From assembly GCA_047973025.1 (NCBI GenBank), contig JBKEBE010000006.1, positions 5,386 through 69,385 of the forward strand: a stretch of 64,000 bases of DNA. Reading direction: 5' to 3'. The stretch is from Paludibacteraceae bacterium (GTDB lineage: Bacteria; Bacteroidota; Bacteroidia; Bacteroidales; Paludibacteraceae). The translations under genes were made by a program, and so were the position numbers. This document shows, piece by piece, positions 3,339 to 19,027 of the stretch (position 1 is its first letter; every line of letters starts with the position of its first letter). The notes under the pieces are model-generated. The model saw only the letters and a list, made by a program, of their open reading frames with translations. It had not been told where the DNA came from and ran no database searches.

Positions 3339-3962
3339 ATGGAATTTAAATCATTAAAAAACATCGAAACATCTTTTAAGCAGATACGGCTGTATGCACT
3401 TGTGTTCGGCATGCTCTGCACGCTGACGGTGGGTTTTGCCCTTTGGAAATCCTACGGTTTCGCCGAAGCGCAGCGCCAAAAAGTGTATGTGCTGGACAGC
3501 GGAAAATCGCTGATCGTTGCCCTTTCGCAGAATGCGGCGCTGAACCGCCCCGTGGAAGCACGAGAACACGTGCGCCGTTTCCACGAACTGTTTTTCACGC
3601 TGTCGCCCGATAAGTCGGCAATCGAAAGCAACATGAAGCGGGCTTTTTTTTTAGCAGACCAGTCGGCATTTAATTACTACAAGGACCTTTCGGAGAAAGG
3701 ATACTACAACCGCATCATCTCGGGAAATATCCAACAGCGGATTGAGATAGACAGCGTGCAGTGCGATTTTGCACAGTACCCGTATGAAGCACGCACCTTT
3801 GCGCGGCAGTACATCGTCCGTTCGAGTAGCATTACCGAACGAAGCCTCATAACATCCTGCCGGCTGATCAATTCCACCCGTTCGGACAACAACCCGCAGG
3901 GATTCGTCATCGAAGATTTCATCGTCAGGGAGAACAGGGATTTACAAACCATTAAAAGGTAA
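3339..3962 (+). CDS. traK: Conjugative transposon protein TraK
   Basis: 207 aa with one N-terminal TM segment. Position and length match TraK. Confidence 0.8.
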   Translation: MEFKSLKNIETSFKQIRLYALVFGMLCTLTVGFALWKSYGFAEAQRQKVYVLDSGKSLIVALSQNAALNRPVEAREHVRRFHELFFTLSPDKSAIESNMKRAFFLADQSAFNYYKDLSEKGYYNRIISGNIQQRIEIDSVQCDFAQYPYEARTFARQYIVRSSSITERSLITSCRLINSTRSDNNPQGFVIEDFIVRENRDLQTIKR

Positions 3963-3967
3963 AAATC

Positions 3968-4237
3968 ATGAAAAAGATATTGGATGAAATAACCCGGAAA
4001 CGGAACGGCTTCAATGAAAAATTGAAAAACCGGCTGGAAAGGATGACGCCCGACGCCCGGATGCGTACCATCCTCATCCTGCTGACTGCGTATGCACTGG
4101 CGACGGTATTTTTCCTCGTTCGGGGGTTTTCCGGGGGAAGCAGGAGCAGGTTTGAAGTTAAACACATTGAACCTGCAGAGCTTGAAAAAAAGACCGGTGG
4201 AAAGCCGGCTCCTAATGATTCGGCATACCGCTATTAA
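3968..4237 (+). CDS. traL: Conjugative transposon protein TraL-like (small, single TM)
   Basis: 89 aa, starting 5 nt after the traK stop, with one TM span (ILILLTAYALATVFFLV). Confidence 0.65.
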   Translation: MKKILDEITRKRNGFNEKLKNRLERMTPDARMRTILILLTAYALATVFFLVRGFSGGSRSRFEVKHIEPAELEKKTGGKPAPNDSAYRY

Positions 4238-4291
4238 CCTGCCTGACGGCAGATAAACAAATTAAAAAAAACAACTAACAATTTTTTAAAA

Positions 4292-5668
4292 ATGGAAAAT
4301 CAAAAAAATGAACTTGAAACCGGAATCTCTAATGAAATGCAGGATGACGGTGAAAATAGAAAAGAGGGGAAAAAGCCGGTTGAAAAAGAGCGGCGCACCC
4401 TTTCTCCCGAAGAAATTCAGAAACGGAAGAAAATGCTGATTTATCCGCTGATGGTACTCGTGTTTATCGGCGCACTGTATTGGATTTTTGCCCCTTCAAA
4501 AGCCGAAAAAGAAAAGCAGGAAACGGGACAGGGGTTAAACCTGGAAATTCCGCAGGTAAGCGGGGGCGATCTGCCGGACGATAAAGAAACCGCCTACAAG
4601 CAGGCGGACATGGAGCAGAAAGAGAGTGAAAGGCAGTCGGCGATCGGTGCGCTGTCCGATTTTTTCGGAGGAACGCAGAAAGCACACAGCCGTCCCGAAG
4701 AGTGGGAATTAGCCGCCGAACCGGATTACAGCAATGCCGGACACAACGAAATCCGCCAATCGGCATCGGCTTACGGTGACATCCGCCGCACGCTCGGAAA
4801 CTTCTACGAAGACAACTCGAAGACGGATGCCCTGCAGATGCAGATTGATGAACTGCAGGCACAGTTAAACGAAAAGAAGAATGCAGAATCGGAAAACGAC
4901 GAACTGCAGAAACAGTTGGAGCTGATGGAAAAATCGTATGAACTGGCATCCAAGTACATGCCCCAATCATCGGGAACGATGGCAGAACCTTTTGGAAATC
5001 CGGCAGGACATTCGACCGAAAGCGCTCCGAAAGCAGTCGGAACGGAGAGCAAAGAACCCGTATTCACCGTGTTGCCCGATGCGAAAAACGTCGTCTCGGC
5101 ACTTTACCGGGATGTACCTAACAGCGTGTTCATCGCCGAGCAGTCGCAGGAACGCAACCGCTATTTTATTTCCGGAACGGATGACTTTGATGATGCTTTC
5201 GACAAAAATACGCTGAAAGTTTCCGTCCACGAAACGGTAACGCTCAAAGACGGCGAAACCGTCCGCCTGCGTCTGTTGGAAACGGCCCGGGTAGCCGGAA
5301 TGCTTATCCCCAAAAACAAAATCCTGACCGCACAGGCAAAAATTCAAGGCAGCCGCCTGTCGCTTTCGGTTACCCACATCGAACAGCAGGGGCGGATTGT
5401 CGCCGTGAGCCTGTCGGCGCACGATTTGGATGGACAGCCGGGCATTCTCATTCCCAATTCGGAAGAGATGAATGCCGTGAAAGAGGTCGTTGCAGGAATG
5501 GGACAATCGGCGGGAACGAGCTTCACGTTCAATTCATCCGCAGGACAGCAGTTAGCGTCTGATGCCGGAAGAGGCGTGATGCAGGGTGCATCGCAGTACC
5601 TGAACAAAAAAATGCGGGAAGTGAAAGTTACGCTCAAAACGGGGCATCTGCTTTATTTAGCCCCCTAA
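4292..5668 (+). CDS. traM: Conjugative transposon protein TraM (VirB10-like position)
   Basis: 458 aa with an N-terminal TM segment, an acidic coiled-coil middle region and a conserved C-terminal domain. Position matches TraM. Confidence 0.8.
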   Translation: MENQKNELETGISNEMQDDGENRKEGKKPVEKERRTLSPEEIQKRKKMLIYPLMVLVFIGALYWIFAPSKAEKEKQETGQGLNLEIPQVSGGDLPDDKETAYKQADMEQKESERQSAIGALSDFFGGTQKAHSRPEEWELAAEPDYSNAGHNEIRQSASAYGDIRRTLGNFYEDNSKTDALQMQIDELQAQLNEKKNAESENDELQKQLELMEKSYELASKYMPQSSGTMAEPFGNPAGHSTESAPKAVGTESKEPVFTVLPDAKNVVSALYRDVPNSVFIAEQSQERNRYFISGTDDFDDAFDKNTLKVSVHETVTLKDGETVRLRLLETARVAGMLIPKNKILTAQAKIQGSRLSLSVTHIEQQGRIVAVSLSAHDLDGQPGILIPNSEEMNAVKEVVAGMGQSAGTSFTFNSSAGQQLASDAGRGVMQGASQYLNKKMREVKVTLKTGHLLYLAP

Positions 5669-5686
5669 ATCCCCCGCAAGGGGGAC
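5659..5686. repeat. Hairpin element copy E4 (arm then hairpin)
   Basis: Sequence is agccccctaaat + ccccc-gcaa-ggggg + ac. The traM stop codon (5666-5668) lies inside the arm. Confidence 0.8.
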
Positions 5687-5736
5687 TTTTAAAACCAAAT
5701 ACATAATCAAATTTTTATTCTAACATAGTCTGAAAA

Positions 5737-5767
5737 AGCCTTCCCTTCGGGAAGGTTTGGATGGGCT
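5737..5767. repeat. Hairpin element copy E5 (hairpin then arm)
   Basis: Sequence is agccttccc-ttcg-ggaagg + tttggatgggct. Confidence 0.8.
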
Positions 5768-5783
5768 TTAAATTCATAACAAT

Positions 5784-6704
5784 ATGAAAATCAAACAATT
5801 TCTTTTAGCAACAATTTTGCTGGCAGGCACATTTTCTGCCAACGCCCAATTCGGAACGGGCGACCTGTATCAAGGAATGAGCCGAAACATCCCCGGCGGG
5901 CGAGTGGTACTGCCTTACGGACTTTCCGTAACGTACGACAAAACCGTCCATCTTATTTTTCCTGCACAAATCCGTTACGTGGATTTGGGAAGTTCCAACA
6001 TCATCGCCGGAAAAGCCGAAGATGCCGACAACGTGCTTCGGGTGAAAGCGTCCGTGCGGGATTTTGAGACAGAAACCAATCTTTCGGTCATCTGCGACGA
6101 CGGCAGTTTCTTTGCCTTCAACGTGAAATACGCCGAAGAACCGGAACGGCTGAACATCGAGATGCAGGATTTTCTCCATTCGGGAGCGGGTAATCTGCCG
6201 ACCAACAAAGCCGATATTTATTTCAAAGAATTGGGCAATCAGTCGCCTGTGTTGGTTAAGCTGATTATGAAAACGATATGGCAAAACGACCGCAGGGAAA
6301 TCAAGCACATCGGCTCGAAAAAGTTCGGCGTACAATTCTTATTGCGAGGCTTATACACGCATAATGGACTTTTTTATTTTCACACGCTTACCAAAAACCA
6401 AAGTCAAATGCCGTTCAATATCGACTTCGTTACCTTCAAAGTAGTGGATAAAAAAGTGGCGAAACGCACCGCCATTCAAGAGCAAATCCTGCAACCGCTC
6501 CGCATCCACAACGACATTGTCCGCATCGGCGGAAACCAATCGAAACGCTCCGTGTTCGCACTCGAACAGTTTACTTTGCCCGATGATAAAGTATTGGAAG
6601 TTACGCTTTTCGAGCAAAACGGCGGACGGCATCAGACTTTCATCGTGGAAAACGAGGATTTAATCCGTGCAAAAAACATTGATAACCTGAAATTGAAATT
6701 TTGA
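5784..6704 (+). CDS. traN: Conjugative transposon protein TraN
   Basis: 306 aa with a signal peptide ending SANAQ. Position and length match TraN. Confidence 0.8.
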   Translation: MKIKQFLLATILLAGTFSANAQFGTGDLYQGMSRNIPGGRVVLPYGLSVTYDKTVHLIFPAQIRYVDLGSSNIIAGKAEDADNVLRVKASVRDFETETNLSVICDDGSFFAFNVKYAEEPERLNIEMQDFLHSGAGNLPTNKADIYFKELGNQSPVLVKLIMKTIWQNDRREIKHIGSKKFGVQFLLRGLYTHNGLFYFHTLTKNQSQMPFNIDFVTFKVVDKKVAKRTAIQEQILQPLRIHNDIVRIGGNQSKRSVFALEQFTLPDDKVLEVTLFEQNGGRHQTFIVENEDLIRAKNIDNLKLKF

Positions 6705-7300
6705 TGAAAAAGACGATGATTTTAATCGTGTGCCTTGTTGCGATAGCGGCAGTCACACACGCCCAACGGTTAATTCCGGGACAGCGGGGATTGCAATTAT
6801 CCTACATTTATCCGATTATTCCCACAAATGATAATCATTTGCAGCCCGCAAAAGCCCTCCCTACGGGAGGGTTTGGGTGGGCTTTGGCAATGACCATCAA
6901 TCACAAGCGAGCCAATCATTGGCTTTTCGGTTTAGAATACGCCAAGAAAAACTTTGCGTATCGAAACACAAAACTTCCTGTCGAAACTTTCGCTTTCGAG
7001 GGCGGATATATGCTCAATCTCTTTTCTGATGCCGGAAAGAACCTTTTGCTCAACACCGGAATTACCGCCGTTTCCGGTTACGAAACCGTTAATCGGGGCG
7101 AAAAACTTCTGCCCGACGGAGCAACTCTTTTGTCAAAAGACAAATTTGTTTACGGCGGAGCGTACCATTTGGCATTGGACGTTTTCGCAACGGACAACTT
7201 GGTGTTTTTCGTAAAAGGAAAGTGCAACGTGCTTTGGGGAAGCGATGTGGAGAGGTTTCGACCGCAGATAAATACAGGAATTAGAATAAGTCTGAACTAG
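6704..7300 (+). CDS. traO: Conjugative transposon protein TraO (outer-membrane beta-barrel-like)
   Basis: The ATG overlaps the traN TGA (TGATG). It has a signal peptide and the conserved PGQRGLQ motif, with alternating beta-strand-like sequence. Hairpin element E6 sits in frame within it. Confidence 0.75.
   Translation: MKKTMILIVCLVAIAAVTHAQRLIPGQRGLQLSYIYPIIPTNDNHLQPAKALPTGGFGWALAMTINHKRANHWLFGLEYAKKNFAYRNTKLPVETFAFEGGYMLNLFSDAGKNLLLNTGITAVSGYETVNRGEKLLPDGATLLSKDKFVYGGAYHLALDVFATDNLVFFVKGKCNVLWGSDVERFRPQINTGIRISLN
6853..6883. repeat. Hairpin element copy E6 (hairpin then arm), inside the traO coding sequence
   Basis: Sequence is agccctccc-tac-gggaggg + tttgggtgggct. It translates in the traO frame as ..KALPTGGFGWAL.. 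Confidence 0.8.
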
Positions 7301-7358
7301 GATTTATGTGATTTTTATGATTAAAAATGATTTTGTAAAACAATAAAAATGACTAAAA

Positions 7359-7808
7359 ATGAAACTAAAAAGTAAAATAATCAATAATTTATGGGTGGTG
7401 GGAGTGCTACTCATTGCCGGGTTTTGTCTATCTGCTTGCGATAACGAGCTGGATGTTCAGCAGGTGTATGAATTTGATATTCGCACGATGCCAGTGCGTA
7501 AAGAAATCCGCCAAAACGAAACCGCTGAAATCCGTTGTTCGCTAATCGAGAAAGGAAGTTTTTCCGATAATCGCTATACCATTCGTTACTTCCAATCAGA
7601 AGGATTTGGCGAACTTCGTTTAGGCAAAAACGGCGAAGTCTTTCTGCCTAATGACCGATATCCGCTTCCGGACAAAGAATTTCGACTGTACTACACTTCC
7701 CGCTCCAACGAAAGCCAGACCTTCGAGGTAGTGGTGGAAGATGGATTTGGAAATCAGAGGAGGTTGGAGTTTGAGTTTAGTGCTCAACGAGAAGAAATTA
7801 GGGAGTAA
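7359..7808 (+). CDS. traQ: Conjugative transposon lipoprotein TraQ (DUF3872-like)
   Basis: 149 aa with a lipobox (LSAC). The motifs TMPV, EIRC, YTIRYFQ and FRLYYTS resemble Bacteroides TraQ. Confidence 0.7.
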   Translation: MKLKSKIINNLWVVGVLLIAGFCLSACDNELDVQQVYEFDIRTMPVRKEIRQNETAEIRCSLIEKGSFSDNRYTIRYFQSEGFGELRLGKNGEVFLPNDRYPLPDKEFRLYYTSRSNESQTFEVVVEDGFGNQRRLEFEFSAQREEIRE

Positions 7809-7849
7809 AATCCCGATTTGTTTCATACTTTAATATTTAATAAATGCAG

Positions 7850-7885
7850 AAAAGCCCTTGCACGTGATGTGCTGGGGCTTTTTGG
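7850..7885 (+). terminator. Stem-loop after traQ, a possible end of the tra operon
   Basis: aaaagccc ... gggctttt with an inner gcac/gtgc pairing, followed by a T-run. Confidence 0.45.
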
Positions 7886-7902
7886 ATGAAATTAACCCAT
7901 TG

Positions 7903-8424
7903 TCAAATTAGAGAGGACCAGATTTTTAATCTTTTTTCTACTTCTCCAACTAACTTTTGATTGTTTCGAAAAAGAAAATTAGAAGCTATTAGTTGATTTA
8001 ATTTAGATATTGCGTCTCTTGGTGATAAAATTCCCGTTTCAACAAATTTATCAAAAATCCAAAACATACCGTGATACTCAATCTCTTTGTTTTTGGCGTA
8101 ATTTCGAAGAGTTTTATCACTGCTTAAAACGCAAGCGTTAATTTTGTTGGCGACGTGTAACACAGATTTATCAGCTTCTGATAAAGACTTTGGGTAATTT
8201 TCAAAGTAAATTTCAACAAAGTCTTGTTCGTGTAAATTATGAATAAAAAGCCTGCCAACGGACTGATAGGCTTGAAGTATTTCTTGTTGTTCCGAATACA
8301 ATTCGTATAAAACTGCAGAAGTAGTATGTATCTCTAATTCAAAATTGAAAAAAGATTTTGTCAAACCTATATCATACAAATCAATGAAAATATTAGCATC
8401 GGTAACGGCAATTTTTACTTTCAT
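7903..8424 (-). CDS. PIN-like (DUF4411-like) putative nuclease, second gene of the HTH-ImmA operon
   Basis: 173 aa. The N-terminal VTDANIFIDL looks like the first acidic motif of a PIN fold. Later acidic motifs are SEADKS and LSSDKTLR. It starts 21 nt after the upstream stop. Assignment is by eye only. Confidence 0.5.
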   Translation of the reverse strand: MKVKIAVTDANIFIDLYDIGLTKSFFNFELEIHTTSAVLYELYSEQQEILQAYQSVGRLFIHNLHEQDFVEIYFENYPKSLSEADKSVLHVANKINACVLSSDKTLRNYAKNKEIEYHGMFWIFDKFVETGILSPRDAISKLNQLIASNFLFRNNQKLVGEVEKRLKIWSSLI

Positions 8425-8445
8425 AGCTTAACACATATTATGAAA

Positions 8446-9510
8446 TTAAAATACCATTTGGTGTTCCTTTCTGAAATCAGCCAAAGATTGATTGTTCAAA
8501 GAAGCTGCTTTAGACATTGAAATTTGGTCTTCAACTAATGCACGGAATAAAAGTTGCTCAAAGCGGTTAGATTCTTCTGCTCCATTATATTCAACAGGTT
8601 CGTCTACTTTCCAATTCATCTGCTTTATTAAGAAAAAGAATTGTTTAGTATAGTGGTCGTTGATAATGCCACAGTCTTTGGCTCTCATAACTACGGCTTG
8701 CATAGAAATACCGTATTGTTTTTTGATATTGCCCAACTCATTTATTGAAAGTTTATTTCTGTGTTCGCCTAACTCTGCTTTAAGAGTTTTTTCAGGTAAC
8801 AACATTGCGCCTGCAAATTGATGACACAAAGTTTCTTTTTGTCTTTCGGTAATATCGCCAAACTTCAAAAGTAAGTGAGCCAATTCATGCAACAAAGTAA
8901 AACGTATTCTATCAGGCTTATTTATCTTGTTAGCGTTATATGCCACAACAGGAATAGTGTCGTTTACACGAGTTTGCAAGCCGTCAAAATCATCATTAAC
9001 TCTTAAATCAACAACTTTAATATTTTTATCCTCCAAGAGTTCAACAATATTGAAAATAGGACCATAACCCAACCCCCATTTTTCTCTTAAAAGTTCTGCT
9101 GCTTTATTTACCTGTTTATACTCAGTTACAATTTCAAAGTCTTTTAAGTGATCTTCAAACTCATTTGGTAAGCCCAAAATTTCTTCTAACTCTAAATACC
9201 GTGATAGTTTTTCCTTAGTGATTTCTTTAATTATTGAAGCCTCTTTTTGTGGCATTTTGCTCAATTTTCGAAACCCTACTTCACCCAACTCCACTTTAGT
9301 ACTTCTGAAAAAATAATCAGGATTTACATTTAAAGCCTTACTTAATAAGTTGATTTTTTCGGTATCAGGAATGACTTCACCTTTCTCGTAACGATGCAAT
9401 GCTTGACGAGATAATTGATTATCCAAGGCATCAGCCAAATCCTGCAATGAAAAACCTTTCATCAAACGGGCTGACTTAAAGCGTTCTGAAAAAATCTCTT
9501 TCATTTCCAT
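8446..9510 (-). CDS. Fusion protein: N-terminal XRE-family HTH plus C-terminal ImmA/IrrE-type zinc metallopeptidase
   Basis: 354 aa. The HTH region is FKSARLMKGFSLQDLADAL...LHRYEKGE. The HEXXH motif is LLHELAHLL. Confidence 0.85.
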   Translation of the reverse strand: MEMKEIFSERFKSARLMKGFSLQDLADALDNQLSRQALHRYEKGEVIPDTEKINLLSKALNVNPDYFFRSTKVELGEVGFRKLSKMPQKEASIIKEITKEKLSRYLELEEILGLPNEFEDHLKDFEIVTEYKQVNKAAELLREKWGLGYGPIFNIVELLEDKNIKVVDLRVNDDFDGLQTRVNDTIPVVAYNANKINKPDRIRFTLLHELAHLLLKFGDITERQKETLCHQFAGAMLLPEKTLKAELGEHRNKLSINELGNIKKQYGISMQAVVMRAKDCGIINDHYTKQFFFLIKQMNWKVDEPVEYNGAEESNRFEQLLFRALVEDQISMSKAASLNNQSLADFRKEHQMVF

Positions 9511-9530
9511 TGTTATTTTGAATTATAATG

Positions 9531-9538
9531 CAAAGATA
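9531..9538 (-). promoter_or_regulatory. Candidate Bacteroidota -7 box for the HTH-ImmA operon
   Basis: Plus-strand caaagata equals TAtcTTTG on the minus strand, about 20 nt upstream of the ATG. The spacing to any -33 TTTG is not ideal. Confidence 0.4.
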
Positions 9539-9735
9539 ATACTTTTTAGTTTACAAACACACAAAAACAATACCACTTTTCACACTATTTTGCTAACTAT
9601 GACAGAATTTTATGTTGACAAGACTGTATTTTACTGACAATTTTACCGAATTCAATCAAAAACTGAAAGTTTACAATACATAGTTGACATATTTACATAA
9701 AAATTTGATTTTGTAACTGAATGGAATAGTATTTG

Positions 9736-9743
9736 TACATTTG
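9736..9743 (+). promoter_or_regulatory. Candidate -7 box (TACATTTG) for the DUF2188-CBASS operon
   Basis: It matches TAnnTTTG, and a TTTG lies ~22 nt upstream. It is ~50 nt upstream of the first ATG (9792). Confidence 0.4.
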
Positions 9744-9749
9744 CAGACG

Positions 9750-9766
9750 GGTGCAAATAGGTGCAA
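9750..9766 (+). promoter_or_regulatory. Direct repeat GGTGCAA-ATA-GGTGCAA, a candidate operator
   Basis: Two exact 7-mers with a 10-bp period lie immediately downstream of the candidate -7 box. Confidence 0.35.
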
Positions 9767-9791
9767 CCATAACTTTTAATATTGTATAACG

Positions 9792-10013
9792 ATGAAGAAA
9801 AATCAACATGTAGTGCCGCACGAGAAAGGTTGGGCGGTAAAAGGCGCAGGCAACGAAAGGAACACAAAAATTGTACCTACACAAAAGGAAGCTATTGACA
9901 TAGCAAGGGAGATTGCCAAAAATCAGCAATCAGAATTAGTAATTCATAACAAAGAAGGAAAAATTAGGGAAAAAGACAGCTTTGGAAATGACCCACGAGA
10001 TATTAAGGGATAG
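9792..10013 (+). CDS. DUF2188-family small protein, first cistron of the CBASS-like operon
   Basis: 73 aa. The pattern HVVPHEKGWAVKGAG...KEAIDIAREIAKNQ..ELVIHNKEGKIREKDSFGNDP matches the DUF2188 consensus as I recall it. Its stop lies 3 nt before the patatin ATG. Confidence 0.7.
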   Translation: MKKNQHVVPHEKGWAVKGAGNERNTKIVPTQKEAIDIAREIAKNQQSELVIHNKEGKIREKDSFGNDPRDIKG

Positions 10014-10016
10014 CAG

Positions 10017-11003
10017 ATGAAGTTTAAAATTTTATCAATAGACGGTGGCGGAATAAAGGGGCTTTACTCCTCTACCATTCTTGAACATTTGGAAAGTAAA
10101 TTTGGTGGTAGTTGTTCCGACTACTTTGATATGATTTGTGGAACTTCAACAGGTGGTTTGATAGCTTTGGCTCTATCACAAAAAATCCCTGCTTCTGAAA
10201 TTTCAAAAATCTACACCAAACACGGAAAGGATATTTTTCCGAAACAAAATAAGTTAGTCGGTTTGCTCCGTCAAACTTTATGGAAAGGAAAATTTAAAGA
10301 CGAAGCATTGAAAAACGTGCTTACTGAAATTTTTGGCGAAAAGACTATTGGGGAAAGTAACAACCTGCTTTGTATCCCTTCCTATTCATTTACTGATGCT
10401 CGTCCGTGGATTTTTAAGTATGACCATAAGGAAGGCAATTTAGACAGGGATAATAAAGCAAGATATGTTGATGTGGCTTTGACGACATCGGCAGCACCTA
10501 CCTATTTGCCTTTGGCAGAAATTGATTTGTATGATTACAAGCAATTTATTGACGGTGGTGTGTGGGCAAACAATCCGTCTTTACTCGGGTTGGTTGAAGC
10601 CCTAACTTATTTTGTTGGCGAAGGAAAACCTTATGACAGTATTCAAATACTTTCTGTAAGTAGTTTGAACAACACTGCAGGAAAGCCAACAGGACTTAAA
10701 CGAAACAGGTCGTTTATACAATGGCGAAATGATTTGTTTGAAACATCTTTGATTGGGCAAAGCCATTTTTCGCATTACGTTCTCTCTCAATTTCACAACC
10801 TAAATTCTATGCCTGTGGAATATATTCGGATTCCTTCCGAAGCAATTTCTGCCGAACAACAACATTTGGTTCAACTTGATGTTGCAACCGACAAGGCTCT
10901 GCACCTAATAAGGGGTAAAGGAAACGACAGGGGAACTTTGGCAAGCAAAGACCCTGAAATTGCAAAATTTTTTCAATCACAAAAAACATATAAAATAAGA
11001 TAA
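10017..11003 (+). CDS. capV: Patatin-like phospholipase, CBASS effector (CapV-like)
   Basis: 328 aa. It has the oxyanion motif DGGGIKG, the nucleophile motif GTSTG and the catalytic Asp motif DGG (FIDGGVWANNP). Confidence 0.85.
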   Translation: MKFKILSIDGGGIKGLYSSTILEHLESKFGGSCSDYFDMICGTSTGGLIALALSQKIPASEISKIYTKHGKDIFPKQNKLVGLLRQTLWKGKFKDEALKNVLTEIFGEKTIGESNNLLCIPSYSFTDARPWIFKYDHKEGNLDRDNKARYVDVALTTSAAPTYLPLAEIDLYDYKQFIDGGVWANNPSLLGLVEALTYFVGEGKPYDSIQILSVSSLNNTAGKPTGLKRNRSFIQWRNDLFETSLIGQSHFSHYVLSQFHNLNSMPVEYIRIPSEAISAEQQHLVQLDVATDKALHLIRGKGNDRGTLASKDPEIAKFFQSQKTYKIR

Positions 11004-11005
11004 TT

Positions 11006-12004
11006 ATGGCAAATTGTAATACACACTTTGAAGAATACAATGGTAAAATCAGATTGACTGACACCCGTAGAAAAAGCCTTATAGGCTCTCGTAATGAATT
11101 GCGAAATAAGGTTAGGAAGTGGTTTAAGGAAAATAAACCTAATGAAACAAAACCAAAGTTTAGCGGACAAGGTTCAATGTCTATAGACACAATCATAAAC
11201 CCAATTCCACGAAGAATAAAAGATGGGAACGAAGAAATAACGGCTCTTTATTATGATGTAGATGATGGTATTTACTTTCAAGGCGATAAGGAGCCAAATG
11301 ATAGACCAACTCCGACTACATACCATAGTTGGATTTATAATGCTGTAAAAGGACATACGGACAAAGACCCTATTGATAAAAATACTTGTATCAGAACTTT
11401 GTTTGCTGACGGTCATAATATAGACCAACCTATTTACTACAAAAAAGGCGATACACCTCAACTTGCTCACAAGGAGAAAGGTTGGATTGATAGCGACCCA
11501 AAAGCATTTATAGATTGGTTTGAAGAAAAGGTAAAAAAAGAGCCTCAACTAAGAAGGTTGGTGCGTTATGGAAAAAGTTGGTGCGACAATCGTGAATTTG
11601 TAAACACAAGTAAGTCAATGCCATGCGGTTTAATCATTACAATACTTTTTGCGGAAAATGCAGTTTATCGTAAAGACCGTGATGATGTAGCTTTGAAAGA
11701 AACACTACTTGAAATTCAGCGAAAACTCAAAATCTCGTTTGAGTGTAAACGTCCAACAACTCCAAAAGGTGAAAATTTGTTGGCAAATTATGGTCATAAG
11801 GATTATTTTATGGATTGTCTTGCCAAGTTCATTGACGATGCCACGAAAGCATTGCAAGAAAAGAATTTCAAAAAGGCAACTGAACTTTGGCGTAAGCATT
11901 TAAGTGACAGGTTTCCGTTGGGTGAAGATAAGGACGATTCCGCAAACGCTTCGGCAGGACTTGGAACTATTATCACGCCTACAACAAAACCTTATGCAGA
12001 ATAA
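11006..12004 (+). CDS. cGAS/DncV-like nucleotidyltransferase (CD-NTase)
   Basis: 332 aa. It has GQGS (the G[S/G] motif), YDVDDGIYF (the hDxD motif), a later Asp in HNIDQPIYY, and the typical DPKAFIDWF and RLVRYGKSW segments. The C-terminus is ..TKPYAE. Confidence 0.8.
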   Translation: MANCNTHFEEYNGKIRLTDTRRKSLIGSRNELRNKVRKWFKENKPNETKPKFSGQGSMSIDTIINPIPRRIKDGNEEITALYYDVDDGIYFQGDKEPNDRPTPTTYHSWIYNAVKGHTDKDPIDKNTCIRTLFADGHNIDQPIYYKKGDTPQLAHKEKGWIDSDPKAFIDWFEEKVKKEPQLRRLVRYGKSWCDNREFVNTSKSMPCGLIITILFAENAVYRKDRDDVALKETLLEIQRKLKISFECKRPTTPKGENLLANYGHKDYFMDCLAKFIDDATKALQEKNFKKATELWRKHLSDRFPLGEDKDDSANASAGLGTIITPTTKPYAE

Positions 12005-12678
12005 TGAAAAATGTGCAATTTGAAAAAGACATATTACTTGTTCCCGATTTCTTTGACAAGTTGAGTATTGTTGAAGAGAACAATGAACGATTTTTAAAAG
12101 GTTCGTTGGACATTATTGACGGAACAGGAAAATTATGGGATACTTATGAAGTGGAAATTAAGGGTAGTGAAAGCTATCCTTATTCTTTCCCAAAACTGTA
12201 CGAAACAAACAATGCCTTTCTGAAAAACGCGGATTGGCATGTTTACGAAGATGATTTTTCTTGTTGTGTAGATGTGCCAATGAGCGAAAAAATCATTTGT
12301 AAAAATGGTTTGAATGTTTCTGACTACATAAAACAATATGCCATACCCTATTTAGCAAATCAAACATACAGAAAACGAGAAGGGTATTATTTATATGGTG
12401 AGTATTCACACGGAATTTTAGGCAGACTTGAATTTTATCAAAGCAGGTTGAAGGCGAAAAATTTAGCTGAACTTATTAAGATGTTTGATTTGATAATAAA
12501 TGACTATAATCCTGACAGAAGGGCAATGTGTCCTTTTTGTTATAAAGAAAAATTTAGAAGGTGTCATCGTGATGCGTTTAGGGAATTACAAGCAATAAAA
12601 GAATATTTAGCATATGATAGATTGATTTTGCTAAAGATTTTAAAGACAAACCCCGATTTTCAATTACCAATTATTTAA
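12004..12678 (+). CDS. Prokaryotic E2-like (UBC-fold) protein with a C-terminal Cys/His cluster
   Basis: 224 aa. The pattern YEVEIKGSESYPYSFPKLYE...WHVYEDDFSCCVDV resembles the E2 layout (YP..P, then H, then catalytic Cys). The C-terminal CPFCYKEKFRRCH is SEC-C-like. The ATG overlaps the CD-NTase stop (TAATG). Confidence 0.6.
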   Translation: MKNVQFEKDILLVPDFFDKLSIVEENNERFLKGSLDIIDGTGKLWDTYEVEIKGSESYPYSFPKLYETNNAFLKNADWHVYEDDFSCCVDVPMSEKIICKNGLNVSDYIKQYAIPYLANQTYRKREGYYLYGEYSHGILGRLEFYQSRLKAKNLAELIKMFDLIINDYNPDRRAMCPFCYKEKFRRCHRDAFRELQAIKEYLAYDRLILLKILKTNPDFQLPII

Positions 12679-12926
12679 GCATTGTTTAATGATTTTTTTT
12701 CGTCCAATGTAATTGTGATTATGATAAAATGTTTATACAGTAGTGATGCTTTTTATCGAAAAATAAATTCCACTCCGTCCCGGCAAATTTCTTTTGCTTC
12801 TTTTTTGTCCGCCTTTTTTAGTCAAAAAAAGAAGTCCCCGAAACTTTTCAGCTCCAAGGACTTCAAGAAAACAGTCAGAAATAAATGAAATAAAAAAGTC
12901 CATTTCCTTTCTCCTTATGGGGAAAG

Positions 12927-12948
12927 TACCCGAAGGGGGATAGGGGCT
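12927..12948. repeat. Hairpin element copy E7 (degenerate; hairpin then arm)
   Basis: Sequence is taccc-gaa-ggg + ggataggggct. The pcfJ stop codon (12947-12949, minus strand) lies in the arm. Confidence 0.5.
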
Positions 12949-14230
12949 ACGCACTCATCCGCTTTCTAATCAAATGTGCATTCCGATTTACGAGTGAAAT
13001 AATTTGGTCGTGCCATTCCGTATTTTGGTTGCAAACGCCACGTGCTTGCACCACTTGAAAGGTCGCTAATGAAACTTCAACGGTCTCAATGCGTTTGCCG
13101 TTAATCTGTGCCGAAAGAATAAGCGTGTCCGTTTTTAGAAAATATGCGTTGGCATACACACAGTGTTTCAATATGTTACCTTCTTCGAAAAACTCGTTTA
13201 CATCCTGCAAAACCCGCACGTGCAACTGTCCGTCCGAAAATTCCAATCCCAAAAACTTCGATTTCAGCTCTTGATACTGCGTTTCGTTTTTCAAAATTTG
13301 TTCCCGCTGTTTCTCTTTTTCCTGCCGTTTCTGCCAAGCCTGTTTTTTGCGCATCAGGCGGTCGTGTTCGGCTCTCAAATCCGCCGGGCAGACAAATTTG
13401 GCGTTCGATAAATCCTTGCCGAAAAACTGCAATAAATCCACATAATCGCACCATATCGACACATCCGAAACGGTGTACTTGTTGCGAATGCAAATGCGGA
13501 TACTTGCCCAATAATCATCCAAATTTTGCGAACGTTTGATGGAAAAATATCTCAACAAATCAATCTGTCCCGATTTCAGCAAAGTTTCCATTCGGCTGTC
13601 AGACAAGATATTTCGGAAAAAGTTTCGGGGCGAAAGTCCGTGAAAATCACCACGAAAACCGTTGCGTTTCACTTCGGGAATAAAGCGTTTGTGCGGATAA
13701 ACGGCTGTGGGCGAAACAAGATGCGCCTGCCGTTCTTGGCGGATTTCGAGGTCGGACGACCAATTCCAAACATCGTAATACAGCACGCTCATACATCGTG
13801 AACGTGCCATTATCACGGACTTTCCGCTCGGCGATATCCAATGTTGCACCACTTCACGGCAGTAAAGTTGCGCCGGATTGCCCACTTGGCAGTTTTTCTC
13901 CAAAAAGAAATACCGCAAAACTTGAAAACCACCGCAAACGGTGTATATTCCGTAATATTCGGCTTGCTTGAACGACTGTTTTCGGCTGTCGATTACTTTC
14001 TCTTTCGTGCCACAATGCGGACACGTACATCCGCAAATCGTTTCGTACAAGGCGTGTCCGCTTTTCCACGAATGTCCGCACTCCAAACACGTCAGCGTGC
14101 CGTTTTTCAGCCGTCGGGCTTGCTGTTTAAGGCAGTTTCTGAATGCCCAATCCTGCTGTTTTTGAGTGATTGGGGCAAGTCGCTTACTTTGTTCGGCGAC
14201 TTCCTTTTGTAGTTTCGTTCTCGGTTTCAT
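12947..14230 (-). CDS. pcfJ: PcfJ-like protein (conserved conjugative-element accessory protein)
   Basis: 427 aa with a Cys-rich N-terminal region (CLECGHSW...CGCTCPHCG). It resembles the PcfJ-like proteins seen in Bacteroides CTns. Confidence 0.65.
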   Translation of the reverse strand: MKPRTKLQKEVAEQSKRLAPITQKQQDWAFRNCLKQQARRLKNGTLTCLECGHSWKSGHALYETICGCTCPHCGTKEKVIDSRKQSFKQAEYYGIYTVCGGFQVLRYFFLEKNCQVGNPAQLYCREVVQHWISPSGKSVIMARSRCMSVLYYDVWNWSSDLEIRQERQAHLVSPTAVYPHKRFIPEVKRNGFRGDFHGLSPRNFFRNILSDSRMETLLKSGQIDLLRYFSIKRSQNLDDYWASIRICIRNKYTVSDVSIWCDYVDLLQFFGKDLSNAKFVCPADLRAEHDRLMRKKQAWQKRQEKEKQREQILKNETQYQELKSKFLGLEFSDGQLHVRVLQDVNEFFEEGNILKHCVYANAYFLKTDTLILSAQINGKRIETVEVSLATFQVVQARGVCNQNTEWHDQIISLVNRNAHLIRKRMSA

Positions 14231-14234
14231 TTCT

Positions 14235-14642
14235 TTAAAAAAGGCTTTTTTGTATGGCGGTTTCGGTCGGTGTGGTCGGGCGTTTGCGCACTTTGGTCAT
14301 ACGCTCGTAAATCTCGTTTTCGGCACGTTTCAAGGCGTTCTGCCGTGCCTGTTCTTTTTCTTCGGACGTGAGGGTAATCATGTGATTTACAATCACATTA
14401 CAGTCTATCGGTTTGCCGATTTCTAAGGCCGGCTCATCCCAATAATGAGTTGCAAGGGAGTAAATTTCGTCATCGCAAAATCCACATATTCCGCTCTGTT
14501 TTACGTAGTTGAGTATGAATGTAATGCAGTCGTTCATATTTTTTTCGGGATTGTTGAACGATACCGCAAAAAGTTCGTCCGTGCAGGCTCTTTCCGCAAG
14601 GTAGGTTTCTATGGTGCGTTTGAAATGTTCGGTAGTTTTCAT
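14235..14642 (-). CDS. pcfK: PcfK-like protein
   Basis: 135 aa starting at the internal ATG (MKTTEHFKRTIETYL..). The longer 265-aa ORF in the track runs through hairpin element E8 and is unlikely to be real. Confidence 0.6.
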   Translation of the reverse strand: MKTTEHFKRTIETYLAERACTDELFAVSFNNPEKNMNDCITFILNYVKQSGICGFCDDEIYSLATHYWDEPALEIGKPIDCNVIVNHMITLTSEEKEQARQNALKRAENEIYERMTKVRKRPTTPTETAIQKSLF

Positions 14643-14657
14643 TTTTCTGTCTGTTTT

Positions 14658-14687
14658 AGCCCCTCCAAACCTCCCCAAGGGGAGGCT
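14658..14687. repeat. Hairpin element copy E8 (arm then hairpin on the plus strand)
   Basis: Sequence is agcccctccaaac + ctcccc-aa-ggggag + gct. On the transcribed minus strand the loop reads CUUG. Confidence 0.8.
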
Positions 14688-14703
14688 TTTAGGGAATTGT
14701 TCT

Positions 14704-15177
14704 TTAATAAAGTTGAATAATCTTGATTGCTTGCTGATGATGATTGAGAATGTCCAAAACGGAAAACTCTGCCGTGCAAAATTCTTCGCCGGAATGTTTT
14801 CCGTAAGCGGTGTAGATAGCCGTACCACCTCTGTAAAGGCGCAAACGGTAGGTGTCCAAAGTGCTTTCGGGAAGTGAAAGTTTGTCTTGTTCGTCTTCGT
14901 CCAACTCCACAAACGTCCAATCTTTCTCGTCCAAAAGTGCGTGAATGTCGGGTTGCTCGTTTTCATCGGTGCGATAAAAATCCACTGCTGTGTCGTAATA
15001 ATTGAGTGAGCAAAAATTGTAATCTTCCGCAAAAGGTTGAACGGACTGCAAACGCTGTTTCATTCGTTCTCTCCACTCTGTGGTGCAATGGATTAGGGCA
15101 AATTGGCACTCGTCCCAATCGCTGTTGGTGTAGGCTTTTACCAATACAAAATCTGTTATTGTTGATGTTGCTTTCAT
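14704..15177 (-). CDS. Hypothetical conserved CTn protein, acidic
   Basis: 157-aa ORF in the minus-strand operon. I recognise no motif. Confidence 0.5.
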   Translation of the reverse strand: MKATSTITDFVLVKAYTNSDWDECQFALIHCTTEWRERMKQRLQSVQPFAEDYNFCSLNYYDTAVDFYRTDENEQPDIHALLDEKDWTFVELDEDEQDKLSLPESTLDTYRLRLYRGGTAIYTAYGKHSGEEFCTAEFSVLDILNHHQQAIKIIQLY

Positions 15178-15209
15178 ATTTTTTTATCGTTTTTATAGTG
15201 AAGTTTTTA

Positions 15210-15437
15210 TTAAAAAAATGATGCCAAAAGCAATCCGATTACGGCAAGAATAACTGCCCATTTCAGCACCTTAAAAACGATGTTAAGCGTTGTGCGGATG
15301 ATGAATTTCAGTACGGTAAAAGCCACAAAAATCATCACAAGCGTTATCGTTTCCGGCGTGGCGATAACCGAAACGGCGTAAACCGTTCCGATTATCAAAA
15401 TTAAGCCGATTATCAGCCGTAAAGGGATTGTTTTCAT
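15210..15437 (-). CDS. Small membrane protein (about 3 TM segments)
   Basis: 75 aa from an internal ATG (MKTIPLRLIIGLILIIG..), almost entirely hydrophobic. It starts 5 nt after the upstream stop. Confidence 0.5.
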   Translation of the reverse strand: MKTIPLRLIIGLILIIGTVYAVSVIATPETITLVMIFVAFTVLKFIIRTTLNIVFKVLKWAVILAVIGLLLASFF

Positions 15438-15441
15438 CGGG

Positions 15442-15744
15442 TTATCGGTTTGAAAGTGAGATAAAATTTCGCTCCAAAACTCGTTCAAAAGCGGTGTCGC
15501 TGTCGTATTCGTCCTGCGTGATGTCGATACTTCGGATAGGTCTGTCGTTGAATTTCCACTCGATAAAATTGTGTAAGGAGAAAATTTTAACATACCCGTT
15601 TCCTTTCAGATAGGCGACCACAAAAGCGTGTCTGTGTCCGATTTGGCATATCAGATGTTCGGTCTGTTCGCTCGGCTTATTGCCTTTCACAACTGCCATT
15701 AGTTGTATTTTTACTTTCACTGTATTTCTTGTTTTAGTGTCCAT
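15442..15744 (-). CDS. Hypothetical protein
   Basis: 100-aa ORF in the same operon, with no recognisable motif. Confidence 0.4.
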   Translation of the reverse strand: MDTKTRNTVKVKIQLMAVVKGNKPSEQTEHLICQIGHRHAFVVAYLKGNGYVKIFSLHNFIEWKFNDRPIRSIDITQDEYDSDTAFERVLERNFISLSNR

Positions 15745-15758
15745 TTTGAGTTGATTTT

Positions 15759-15787
15759 AGCCCATCCAACCTCCCCAAGGGGAGGCT
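15759..15787. repeat. Hairpin element copy E9 (arm then hairpin on the plus strand)
   Basis: Sequence is agcccatccaac + ctcccc-aa-ggggag + gct. Confidence 0.8.
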
Positions 15788-15840
15788 TTTGGTAGGGTGA
15801 TTATAATTTGTATAAGTTTGAATTGTCGCACTCCGCAAAG

Positions 15841-15866
15841 TCCCCTTTCGGGGGATTTAGGGGGCT
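15841..15866. repeat. Hairpin element copy E10 (hairpin then arm on the plus strand)
   Basis: Sequence is tcccc-tttc-ggggg + atttagggggct. On the transcribed minus strand the loop reads GAAA. Confidence 0.75.
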
Positions 15867-15868
15867 TC

Positions 15869-16423
15869 TCATACTGCTTTCGGATTTTGAATGGTTTCGT
15901 ACAAAGCTTCGCCGTTACAGAAATTGGCTATCTTGCGGACTTCCGTGTAGCCGTAATCGTCTTTGATTTGGTCGAGAATTTTGTCGGCTTCTACTTTTTC
16001 CAAAGCAAACAAAAACTCAAAAAGTACTTCAAAAGGTTTGTAATTTCCACATTCGGCATTGTAAGCATCTTTCACGAGTTTTCGCAAGTCACGTTTTTTT
16101 GGTTTGTAGGCTTTGAAGTCGTCATAAATATCATCGAAAATATCGTCAGCATCACCGTTTGAAACGATATTCCTGCATTCATAAATGTCGTCTAAATAGC
16201 TTTCATCCGGCGTGTAATCAATGCAAGCACCGGAATAATAAGCCGATGTCATAACAATATCAAGCGTGTAAAAGCGGTTGCGGTACTCATCCAAATAATA
16301 ACTCGGATAATTTCGGTTACTGCCTTTCACGTATTCTTTGTGTTCCGGCACGTTTCCAAACTCATAGTCGTCGTTGTCCACCACGATACAACGGTTTTCA
16401 AAAGCAAAATTATTGGTACTCAT
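15869..16423 (-). CDS. Strongly acidic hypothetical protein, a candidate anti-restriction or DNA-mimic protein
   Basis: 184 aa. A hand count gives about 37 Asp+Glu versus about 22 Lys+Arg, with runs such as GDADDIFDDIYDDF. It lies in the CTn accessory operon. Confidence 0.5.
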   Translation of the reverse strand: MSTNNFAFENRCIVVDNDDYEFGNVPEHKEYVKGSNRNYPSYYLDEYRNRFYTLDIVMTSAYYSGACIDYTPDESYLDDIYECRNIVSNGDADDIFDDIYDDFKAYKPKKRDLRKLVKDAYNAECGNYKPFEVLFEFLFALEKVEADKILDQIKDDYGYTEVRKIANFCNGEALYETIQNPKAV

Positions 16424-17412: not shown

Positions 17413-18642
17413 TTACAAAGATGTTGGCTTATAATTTAGTTTGTTGAGTTTTCCCGCCAATATATTCATATCATTTTGAATTTTATTTGTGGTAACGCGG
17501 GCGTAGATTTGCGTTGTTTTTATGTTCGTATGGCCCAGCATTCGAGAAACTGTTTCAATAGGAACGCCCTTGGAGAGCGTAACTGTGGTTGCGAAACTAT
17601 GGCGCGCAATGTGAAATGTTAAATTCTTGTCAATTCCACATAAATCGGCAATTTCCTTTAAATAATCGTTTACTTTTTGATTACTTGGAACGGGAAATAA
17701 ATGTTCATCTACACGCAGTGGCTCGTATTTCTTTATCAACTGCATCGGTATATCCAATAAGACAATATTGCTTCTCACATCGGTTTTTTCACGCTTGGTA
17801 TTGATCCAAAAGCTTCCGTTTTCTTGAACGATGTTATGTATTGTCAATTGTTTTACGTCGATATAAGCCAATCCTGTAAAACAAGAAAAGATGAAAATAT
17901 CCCGCACACGTTCCAGTCTTTCCGAAGGAAGTTTTTTGTTGAGTATTTTTTTGAGTTCTTCGTCCGTCAAATACCCCCGGTCTTCTCGTTCCATCCTGAT
18001 TTTGAAGTTGGCAAACGGATCGAAGTGCAGGTAGCCGGAATTTCGGGCAAAAATCACGATGGTTTTGAAGCGGCGCATTGTACGGGCAACGGTGTTCGGC
18101 TTGCATTCACGAGTAGTTTTCAGGAACAAATCAAATCCGTTAACAAACTCATAATTCAGCTCATTTAGACGAATATCATCACGACCATATTTATGCTGAA
18201 TAAATTCTTTTAGTCGTTTAGTGGTGGTTTCATATTTTCCATAAGTGGATTTTTTTCGTGTAATACCTACTTGTGCTTTGAAATTTTCGTTGTATTTTTC
18301 TGCTGTTTGTAATAGGGTGGTAATTTCACCCTCATTTTTCCCTTGTAGCACAGCCTTGTATTTCTCCATACTCAATTCGTTATCGGCAAAATAAAGTTGA
18401 TTGAAAAGCGAATGTAGTTGGCTGGTAAATTGGTCTATCTGCAGATTGCTTTCTACCGCTTCCTGTGTCCGACCTTTCAAGTGGCTGGTTTTAGCATTCC
18501 ACAAAGATACATTGACATTTATTCCGGTACTCAAAACAAAATATTCTTTACCCAAATAAATTCTTGCCATCAGAGGTGACTTACCTTCTTTGTTCTTGTA
18601 GTTGTTTCTAATGTAGTAAGAAACCTTAAATTGTTTACTCAT
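17413..18642 (-). CDS. int: Tyrosine recombinase/integrase (Bacteroides CTn type)
   Basis: 409 aa. The catalytic signature is HIARHSFATT (HxxR) plus LGHTNIKTTQIYARV (the nucleophilic Tyr). An N-terminal arm-binding-like region is present. Confidence 0.9.
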   Translation of the reverse strand: MSKQFKVSYYIRNNYKNKEGKSPLMARIYLGKEYFVLSTGINVNVSLWNAKTSHLKGRTQEAVESNLQIDQFTSQLHSLFNQLYFADNELSMEKYKAVLQGKNEGEITTLLQTAEKYNENFKAQVGITRKKSTYGKYETTTKRLKEFIQHKYGRDDIRLNELNYEFVNGFDLFLKTTRECKPNTVARTMRRFKTIVIFARNSGYLHFDPFANFKIRMEREDRGYLTDEELKKILNKKLPSERLERVRDIFIFSCFTGLAYIDVKQLTIHNIVQENGSFWINTKREKTDVRSNIVLLDIPMQLIKKYEPLRVDEHLFPVPSNQKVNDYLKEIADLCGIDKNLTFHIARHSFATTVTLSKGVPIETVSRMLGHTNIKTTQIYARVTTNKIQNDMNILAGKLNKLNYKPTSL

Positions 18643-18795: not shown

Positions 18796-18954
18796 TGAAT
18801 GAACGGATATTGACTGCTAACGCTTACTAAAAAGCCGTCAATAGCATTCACTACAAAACAAAAAAACACCGTAAAACCATCGTTCTACAGTGTTTTAATT
18901 CAATTGAAAGCATGTTTTTGATGCTAACTTGAAACCCTGAAAGGTTTCATTTTG

Positions 18955-19027
<73 letters not shown>

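Follow-up and report, generated by a model that had tools for sequence, protein, structure and literature searches.

What role does a DUF2188 gene play at the head of an antiphage operon? The question is raised by a stretch of 64,000 nucleotides from a Paludibacteraceae bacterium (assembly GCA_047973025.1, contig JBKEBE010000006.1, positions 5,386 to 69,385), hereafter the window, in which a DUF2188 gene encoding 73 residues (9792..10013, plus strand) stands directly before three genes of an antiphage signalling system based on cyclic oligonucleotides (CBASS), the four genes together occupying 9792-12678. An earlier note on this DNA presented the DUF2188 gene as an unusual extra of the CBASS operon. 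Our surveys changed this picture, since the gene also heads Thoeris, ubiquitin-like and other operons and is missing from most homologous CBASS loci. Judged by this distribution, DUF2188 does not strictly count as a component of CBASS, and we lean somewhat towards the reading that it is a portable leader cistron of damage-inducible defence operons, which would be tied to switches made of a helix-turn-helix (HTH) protein and a protease and would be independent of the cargo behind it.

What the DUF2188 gene precedes

Scanning one genome per species returned more than 497 relatives of the DUF2188 protein, and the 80 closest (63-93% identity), which span Bacteroidota, Proteobacteria, Clostridium and Nitrospirota, were analysed together with the window; open reading frames (ORFs) were called, neighbouring genes were clustered and the cluster representatives were annotated. 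DUF2188 was nearly always the first cistron, with a median gap of 6 nt to the next gene and with 61 of 71 gaps measuring 2-12 nt. The 81 loci displayed 46 architectures. A cyclase operon, containing either a CD-NTase or PycC, followed DUF2188 in 51 loci and other cargo followed in 23. The junctions with cyclic-nucleotide systems were of at least eight kinds, besides those with Thoeris, ubiquitin-like and other operons, and the CBASS systems among them had effectors of four types. The arrangements behind DUF2188 included CapV-CD-NTase-E2 (the window, L004 and L116), Cap15-CD-NTase-E2, Sa_NUDIX-2TM-CD-NTase with or without E2, CapV-CdnA-Cap2-Cap3 in proteobacterial integrative conjugative elements (ICEs), a CD-NTase with E1-E2-JAB and NucC, the Pycsar-like PycTM-PycC-E2, ThsB alone or with ThsA (Thoeris), Multi_ubiq with E1 and DUF6527, PDC-M36A, an NlpC/LRAT-like protein alone, and no cargo at all. 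When the proteobacterial ICE loci were compared with the window, DUF2188 was 68% identical, whereas CapV was 32% and the CD-NTase 25% identical. Because the DUF2188 sequence is near constant while its operon partners are unrelated, its own partner would be one common to all contexts, for which a nucleic acid, the repressor switch and a general host or phage factor are candidates.

The upstream side of DUF2188 was less varied. An HTH-protease pair or fusion adjoined the gene in 51 of the 81 loci, as CapH and CapP in 29 (CapP match 2.9e-71), as an HTH-M78 fusion in 14 and as a LexA/CI-like HTH-S24 in 8. The window belongs to the fusion type, with a divergent HTH-M78 gene at 8446..9510 on the minus strand. 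Across the 14 loci with a window-type regulator, DUF2188 identity tracked HTH-M78 identity (Spearman 0.77, p = 0.001), and the cargo behind the same head changed from a Cap15 CBASS (L002) to an NlpC-like gene only (L001, L051), a Pycsar-like operon (L009), a ubiquitin-like operon (L011, L013) or none (L060). Considering this tracking together with the changing cargo, the inherited unit is therefore the head module, with the cargo swapped downstream. On sequence comparison this head is composed of a PIN-like gene, which is not always present, HTH-M78 and DUF2188; the PIN-like gene was co-inherited with HTH-M78 in L001-3, L011, L013, L038, L051 and L060.

To see the association from the other side, the CBASS genes were used as the starting point. 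A search with the cyclase gave 23 loci (42-80% identity), of which none carried a close DUF2188 and three (L098, L100 and L103) carried a divergent copy 3 nt before a Cap15-like effector. Through CapV, DUF2188 was found in 2 of 44 evaluable loci; L116, a CapV-found locus, has the architecture of the window, divergent HTH-M78 included. DUF2188 was thus present in ~5 of 67 homologous CBASS loci and missing from ~62 (~93%), so it is facultative for CBASS. By a rough inference from the scan frequency, ~5/67 also greatly exceeds what chance would give for a gene this rare. The earlier note had named absence from homologous CBASS loci together with random placement elsewhere as evidence against a link to the operon. 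Absence was indeed found for most of these loci; random placement was not, as DUF2188 precedes other defence operons. In several DUF2188-less homologous CBASS loci (L083:4944-5360, L084, L085, L086:4780-5361 and L090:2325-2738), the first slot before the effector is held by a ~138-residue protein that has an HNH motif and, at its C-terminus, a membrane-like glycine-zipper segment.

Three further neighbours were observed around DUF2188. A gene of ~139 residues with an NlpC/P60-LRAT-like papain fold (Pfam LRAT 1.5e-7, Peptidase_C92 2.6e-6) occurs in the closest relatives (L001:2460-2879, L002:6226-6645, L004:505-927, L009:6226-6642 and L022:6227-6646). It stands before the effector, 3 nt behind DUF2188, is absent in the window between 10013 and 10017, and in L001 and L051 makes up the entire operon together with DUF2188. 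The window looks like the layout of these relatives minus the NlpC/LRAT-like gene, and by its predicted family this thiol peptidase could be a deconjugating enzyme in E2-only systems that lack JAB. In L005:6232-8424, L006, L008-L010, L016 and L017, the cargo is PycTM with a Pycsar-type cyclase (PADLOC PycC 3e-142; Pfam Guanylate_cyc) and an E2 that belongs to the family of the window's E2 at 22-32% identity, which suggests that control by E2 extends beyond CD-NTases. Finally, a pair of an AAA_21 ATPase (9.3e-26) and an RloB-like protein (6e-17), another defence-type module, adjoins some DUF2188 loci without an HTH-protease neighbour (L010:4287-5555, L027:3704-5590 and L067:3821-5742).

The DUF2188 protein and readings of its role

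The window's protein matched PF09954 (1.6e-26, 92.6 bits against a cutoff of 22), PADLOC PDC-S16 (9.1e-37, covering residues 1-73) and phrog_3220 (4.5e-31). At the level of 50% identity the family comprises 5,548 representatives, most of them ~75 residues long, and some are tandem copies. The subfamily of the window, which spans several phyla, has 24 invariant positions (alignment A1) and a conserved tail, [DN]S[FYH]GNDPxPPKG. The protein is basic (pI 9.6), and its AlphaFold model (mean predicted local distance difference test score, pLDDT, 80.8) shows a beta-beta-beta-alpha-beta-beta order with a low-confidence tail. No real sequence relative in the PDB was found by phmmer or by two profiles (A1 and A3). 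When the model was compared with the viral structure library BFVD, the hits were proteins of DUF2188 type and, with weak similarity only, DUF1508 and HicB-like proteins. A 2026 paper linked another DUF2188 member by HHpred to PDB 5JN6 and, suggestively, to the HicB N-terminal domain. This likeness was not reproduced for the window's protein, for which PDB profiles and Foldseek were negative and the HicB-like BFVD similarity had E 1.1 and template modelling (TM) scores of 0.43-0.49; only the beta-beta-beta-alpha topology agrees with a HicB N-terminal-like fold.

In the case of DUF1508 (YegP-like, 7.2e-37), the gene also adjoins DUF2188, upstream in L005 (5650-5976), L006, L008 and L060 and downstream in L024, and a further occurrence is at L088:8314-8643. 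One phage protein with DUF1508 also resembles the DUF2188 model weakly in structure (BFVD prob 0.96, TM 0.57, E 0.3), and the two small domains may be related or interchangeable. At the C-terminus, 65 of 78 DUF2188 copies end in glycine. DUF2188 was considered as a ubiquitin-like conjugation substrate and this was rejected, as there was no association with E1/E2 (33/7 versus 32/6, Fisher p = 1.0). The C-terminal Lys-Gly codons (AAR GGN) and the stop codon form a Shine-Dalgarno-like AAGG/AAAGGA 7-12 nt before the next start, both in the window (9996-10016) and at the equivalent junctions in L001-L080. The coding end may double as a translational-coupling signal, and the AAGG formed by the AAR-GGN codons may contribute to the conservation of Lys-Gly.

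DUF2188 was also seen in phages. In Streptococcus prophages (L104, Javan35, 3501-7090; L106, Javan570) it is part of the lysogeny module, just 5' of a CI-like HTH-S24 repressor with which it shares the strand, and in Javan35 a small RelA_SpoT-like protein (2.2e-7) and an integrase come next. In M. abscessus prophages it makes up the C-terminal part of an annotated antitoxin that neighbours a BrnT-like toxin. In L105 (Mycobacterium phage prophiT48-1, 2291-3225), a BrnT-like toxin is followed by an annotated antitoxin of 197 residues, in which the C-terminal residues 125-185 form a DUF2188 domain (5.5e-20). No other fusion context was seen that hints at a toxin-neutralising or regulatory role of DUF2188.

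Besides a portable leader cistron, four explanations of the gene were weighed. DUF2188 might be a dedicated fourth CBASS component, that is, a new Cap protein that would modulate signalling by binding to the cyclase, to the E2 or to the cyclic nucleotide. The tight DUF2188-capV coupling, the cyclase operons behind 51 of the 81 copies, the recurrence before CBASS with a CapV and a CD-NTase as divergent as those of the proteobacterial ICEs, and the divergent copies heading Cap15-type CBASS in L098, L100 and L103 are all consistent with this. However, DUF2188 proteins of 65-78% identity head Pycsar-like, Thoeris, ubiquitin-like, NlpC-only and PDC-M36A operons, whose enzymes and messengers are unrelated, most homologous CBASS loci do without the gene, and specific recognition of partners this different is unlikely for so conserved a protein; we consider a dedicated Cap protein improbable. 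A somewhat better case, still a doubtful one, can be made for a small protein that acts on its own in defence or stress (PDC-S16), or for a minimal antitoxin module of HicB-like kind, which would simply be located, and co-transcribed, at the edges of defence islands. The full-length PDC-S16 match, the existence of the phage family phrog_3220, stand-alone copies in L033, L043, L045, L057 and L062, the antitoxin of M. abscessus prophages, the published link to 5JN6 and the predicted beta-beta-beta-alpha core all point that way, but the strict first-cistron position and the narrow gaps argue for a functional tie to the genes downstream, no cognate toxin lies beside DUF2188 in the window except the PIN-like gene across the promoter, and neither profiles nor Foldseek reproduced the similarity to HicB and 5JN6.

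The regulator itself opens another possibility, in which DUF2188 belongs with the PIN-like toxin and the HTH-M78 antitoxin in a three-gene module resembling the toxin-antitoxin defence system RosmerTA (RmrT/RmrA), and CBASS is neighbouring cargo. RmrA models match HTH-M78 at 6.8e-46, the trio is kept in L001, L051 and L060, where cargo is scant or missing, as well as in other loci where the cargo varies, and in a mycobacteriophage DUF2188 is fused into the antitoxin of an RNase-type toxin. Yet most DUF2188 loci have no PIN-like gene, the proteobacterial ones having only CapP and CapH and others HTH-S24 or nothing recognised, and the PIN-like protein did not match any PADLOC RmrT model, so that we rate such a trio as quite unlikely. 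That DUF2188 is an ORF hitchhiking on a promoter cassette, with no role at the locus, would agree with its facultative presence in CBASS and with the published Pa011 work, in which the defence unit was four CBASS genes. The 24 invariant positions across several phyla, the size of the family and the conserved position and coupling of the gene speak against it, and we give this explanation hardly any credence.

The reading of DUF2188 as a portable leader cistron has points against it as well. Only the closest relatives were covered, and one proteobacterial ICE lineage supplies ~28 of the 80 loci, so the counts are not independent. No recognised HTH-protease was found within three upstream genes in 30 of the 81 loci. 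Many CapP-linked CBASS loci are without DUF2188; therefore the regulator and DUF2188 modules are separable. PADLOC files DUF2188 as a single-gene candidate, some copies stand alone, and the fold offered no functional clue, as Foldseek hits in the PDB reached E 0.13 at best and were only noise, Cas1 N-terminal domains with TM ~0.3.

As a portable leader cistron, DUF2188 most likely tunes the expression or the activation threshold of the downstream cargo, judging from its indifference to that cargo, rather than taking part in cyclic-nucleotide chemistry. By analogy with CapH/CapP, the operon is probably kept silent by HTH-M78 and induced by DNA damage or single-stranded DNA (ssDNA). The HTH-M78 protein would repress the shared control region until, in the course of an infection, it is inactivated by DNA damage or ssDNA, a mechanism demonstrated for CapH/CapP; induction of the operon would follow. 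The E2 would restrain or prime the cyclase via the C-terminal tail of the cyclase, and a phage cue would lead to cyclic nucleotide synthesis, activation of CapV and death of the infected cell. More tentatively, and with a good deal less confidence than in the leader cistron as such, we propose that damage-inducible abortive-infection operons have in DUF2188 a small, general co-factor, which would be made first on induction and set the firing threshold. Such a co-factor might act on a shared signal or on the HTH-protease switch, for example by binding ssDNA or RNA or by serving as a safety catch of universal kind.

Since the host cell itself is killed by CBASS, Pycsar and Thoeris, the control of their expression and firing thresholds matters. 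With 73 residues, 65-93% identity across phyla, the first-cistron position in all these systems and a usual place beside an ssDNA- or damage-responsive repressor-protease, DUF2188 is a cheap and tractable candidate for shared control, and the window is a compact natural test case, with six genes on a widespread Bacteroidota conjugative transposon. If true, the co-factor reading would add a cargo-independent layer of control over CBASS, Pycsar, Thoeris and ubiquitin-like systems.

The operon, its control region and the mobile element

The four ORFs of the operon lie exactly where the earlier note had placed them. After the DUF2188 stop codon TAG (10011-10013) come CAG and the patatin ATG at 10017, and the junction sequence thus confirms the 3-nt spacing noted before. 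The patatin and CD-NTase genes are 2 nt apart, and the CD-NTase and E2 genes overlap by 1 nt. Because of the 3-nt gap and because the only promoter motif of Bacteroidota type stands 5' of DUF2188, this gene is almost certainly co-transcribed with the CBASS genes. L116 and identical metagenome contigs also show the DUF2188-CapV-CD-NTase-E2 order. In an assembly collection, 143 blocks contain the exact DUF2188 protein, and the six contexts shown have the layout of the window.

The first CBASS gene (10017..11003, plus strand) encodes a CapV patatin-like phospholipase of 328 residues, which matched NCBIfam NF041079 CBASS_lipase ('CBASS cGAMP-activated phospholipase'; 7.3e-105, score 350.7 against an equivalog cutoff of 200) and the PADLOC phospholipase effector (3.9e-110). 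With GGGIKG at residues 10-15, GTSTG at 42-46 and DGG at 179-181, it is by family and by its GxSxG/DGG motifs a predicted cyclic-nucleotide-activated CBASS effector. The CD-NTase, a cGAS/DncV-like cyclase of 332 residues (11006..12004, plus strand), matched NCBIfam NF041078 cGAS ('CBASS cGAMP synthase'; 3.8e-66, above cutoff) and the PADLOC cyclase (1.8e-120), and 7LJO was the nearest solved structure in a sequence search (7.1e-56). It carries GQGS at residues 54-57, DVD at 84-86 and the third Asp in NID at 138-140, so that all motifs reported before are present in the translations. Its C-terminal tail contains glycine (GLG, residues 318-320) and ends ...SAGLGTIITPTTKPYAE.

The last gene (12004..12678, plus strand) encodes an E2-like protein of 224 residues that matched the PADLOC E2 model PDLC00865 over its full length (1.7e-58); a Pfam search gave no match, and a sequence search for a solved relative found none. 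In the alignment of 14 homologues (A4), a His79...Cys88 pair is invariant, as expected of an E2 active site. A second invariant cluster, C176/C187/H188, reads CPFC...RCH (window 12529-12567), lies in a C-terminal extension and may form a metal-binding knuckle. No E1 or JAB gene was present among the ORFs at 7000-16000 or among the called genes of identical contigs, in agreement with the earlier note. Family matches and motifs uphold the minimal E2-only layout, and on these grounds the operon is a genuine and ordinary E2-only (type II-short) CBASS. Between the convergent E2 and PcfJ genes, a GC-rich 15-bp hairpin (12831..12864) is terminator-like, with a T-run on the minus strand.

The genes across the promoter went unmentioned in the earlier note. 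The HTH-M78 gene (8446-9510) encodes a fusion of HTH_3 (3.2e-12) and Peptidase_M78 (1.1e-13) in 354 residues with a HELAH zinc motif. In PADLOC it matched RmrA (14 models, best 6.8e-46), capP (2.5e-16) and capH (5.9e-12). An XRE-type HTH and an M78 (HExxH) domain are thus joined in one polypeptide, upstream of and divergent from the operon, and the protein is predicted to be a fused repressor-protease of CapH-CapP type or RmrA-like. The PIN-like gene (7903-8424, minus strand), transcribed downstream of it, encodes a DUF3368 protein of 173 residues, with PF11848 found on an identical protein. It matched no PADLOC RmrT model, only PDC-S70 and weakly (1.6e-6), and is possibly a toxin partner of RosmerTA-like or VapC-like kind.

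The divergent control region (9511..9791, 281 nt) was examined by alignment, by motif scan and for inverted repeats, which it contains. A Bacteroidota-type -7 box, TACATTTG, is located at 9736-9743 with TTTG ~22 nt upstream, and in a TAnnTTTG scan it was the only promoter motif of this type ahead of any gene start in the operon, which agrees with the single shared promoter proposed earlier. The box and TGACA/TTTACAA repeats are conserved in six related loci (alignment A2, seven homologous intergenic regions), and the repeats may be operators. An internal TTGACA-17-AAAAAT (9895-9923) was set aside, as a sigma-70 scan is not informative for Bacteroidota. An Rfam search of the locus found no known RNA element.

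The surroundings are those of a CTnDOT-type conjugative transposon. On the plus strand upstream lie TraG (41-1357), DUF4141 (1435-2067), TraJ (2203-3198), TraM (4292-5668), DUF4138/TraN-like (5784-6704), TraO (6701-7300) and TraQ (7359-7808), as assigned by Pfam and by the called genes of identical contigs, on which TraL, TraQ and PcfK are also annotated. On the minus strand downstream are PcfJ (12947-14230), a PcfK-like gene, small ORFs, a tyrosine integrase (17413-18642) and a tRNA-Gly gene (18954-19027), which is the probable end of the element. With such flanks, the claim that the system is carried on a conjugative transposon stands. GC content is 33-38% over ~7.9-12.9 kb and 44-50% in the flanking tra genes and PcfJ, and the regulator pair, DUF2188 and CBASS are one compositionally foreign cargo block of ~5 kb in the transposon.

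Comparison with known systems

The E2-only CBASS of Serratia marcescens, CdnG-E2 (PMC12948482), shares with the window an effector, a CD-NTase and a lone E2 without E1 or JAB, as well as the invariant His...Cys pair of the E2 and a glycine-containing cyclase tail. While the described enzymes are long and of clade G, the window's cyclase is short (332 residues) and nearest to 7LJO. The window's E2, at 224 residues, has the extra C/C/H cluster, whereas SmE2 (~18 kDa) is without such an extension (PMC12948482). Furthermore, the window adds the DUF2188 leader cistron and the fused HTH-M78 regulator.

A published picture of the junction is that of Pseudomonas aeruginosa Pa011, a type II CBASS (CapV-CdnA-Cap2-Cap3) whose figure draws DUF2188 beside capV on an ICE; the work treated the four CBASS genes as the defence unit (bioRxiv 10.1101/2022.03.30.486325). 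As in the window, the gene directly 5' of capV is DUF2188, here carried by an integrative conjugative element, and in our proteobacterial loci (e.g. L030, L035, L055 and L064) it lies 5-6 nt before capV with divergent CapH and CapP. In contrast with the window, Pa011-type systems have a full Cap2 (E1-E2) and Cap3 (JAB) and a two-protein regulator; the window has neither enzyme and its regulator is fused.

With CapH/CapP the window shares an XRE-type HTH and an M78 zinc peptidase, upstream of and divergent from a defence operon, but the two activities are fused in 354 residues that score better against RmrA than against the capH and capP models. CapP is activated by ssDNA, according to the CapH/CapP literature. 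The CapH/CapP work lists DUF2188 operons, as well as a DISARM with a vapC-like gene and a CapH-CapP fusion (bioRxiv 10.1101/2022.04.27.489752, 10.64898/2026.05.16.725639), and for the role in defence predicted for DUF2188 the CapH/CapP paper refers to Burroughs & Aravind 2020. RosmerTA resembles the divergent pair in having an HTH and M78 antitoxin-like protein followed by a small putative nuclease gene; here the partner is instead a PIN-like DUF3368 protein without an RmrT match, and the pair faces CBASS as a CapH/CapP regulator would. PDC-S16/PF09954 matches DUF2188 over its full length and is filed as a single gene, whereas the window and most of the close relatives have it at the head of a multi-gene operon.

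Our literature search found no paper testing the function of DUF2188 and no use of the name 'PDC-S16', and a 2025 Thoeris survey called DUF2188 a putative effector. The association of DUF2188 with defence is thus already on record, in PADLOC PDC-S16, the CapH/CapP paper, the Pa011 figure and the Thoeris survey. Since there is nothing out of the ordinary in the operon as an E2-only CBASS, and since earlier records already contain the DUF2188 link, the value of the present analysis lies in the generalisation and the experiment it suggests. Compared with these records, what is new is the general description of DUF2188 as a first cistron that is cargo-independent, regulator-linked and facultative, together with the window as a compact test case.

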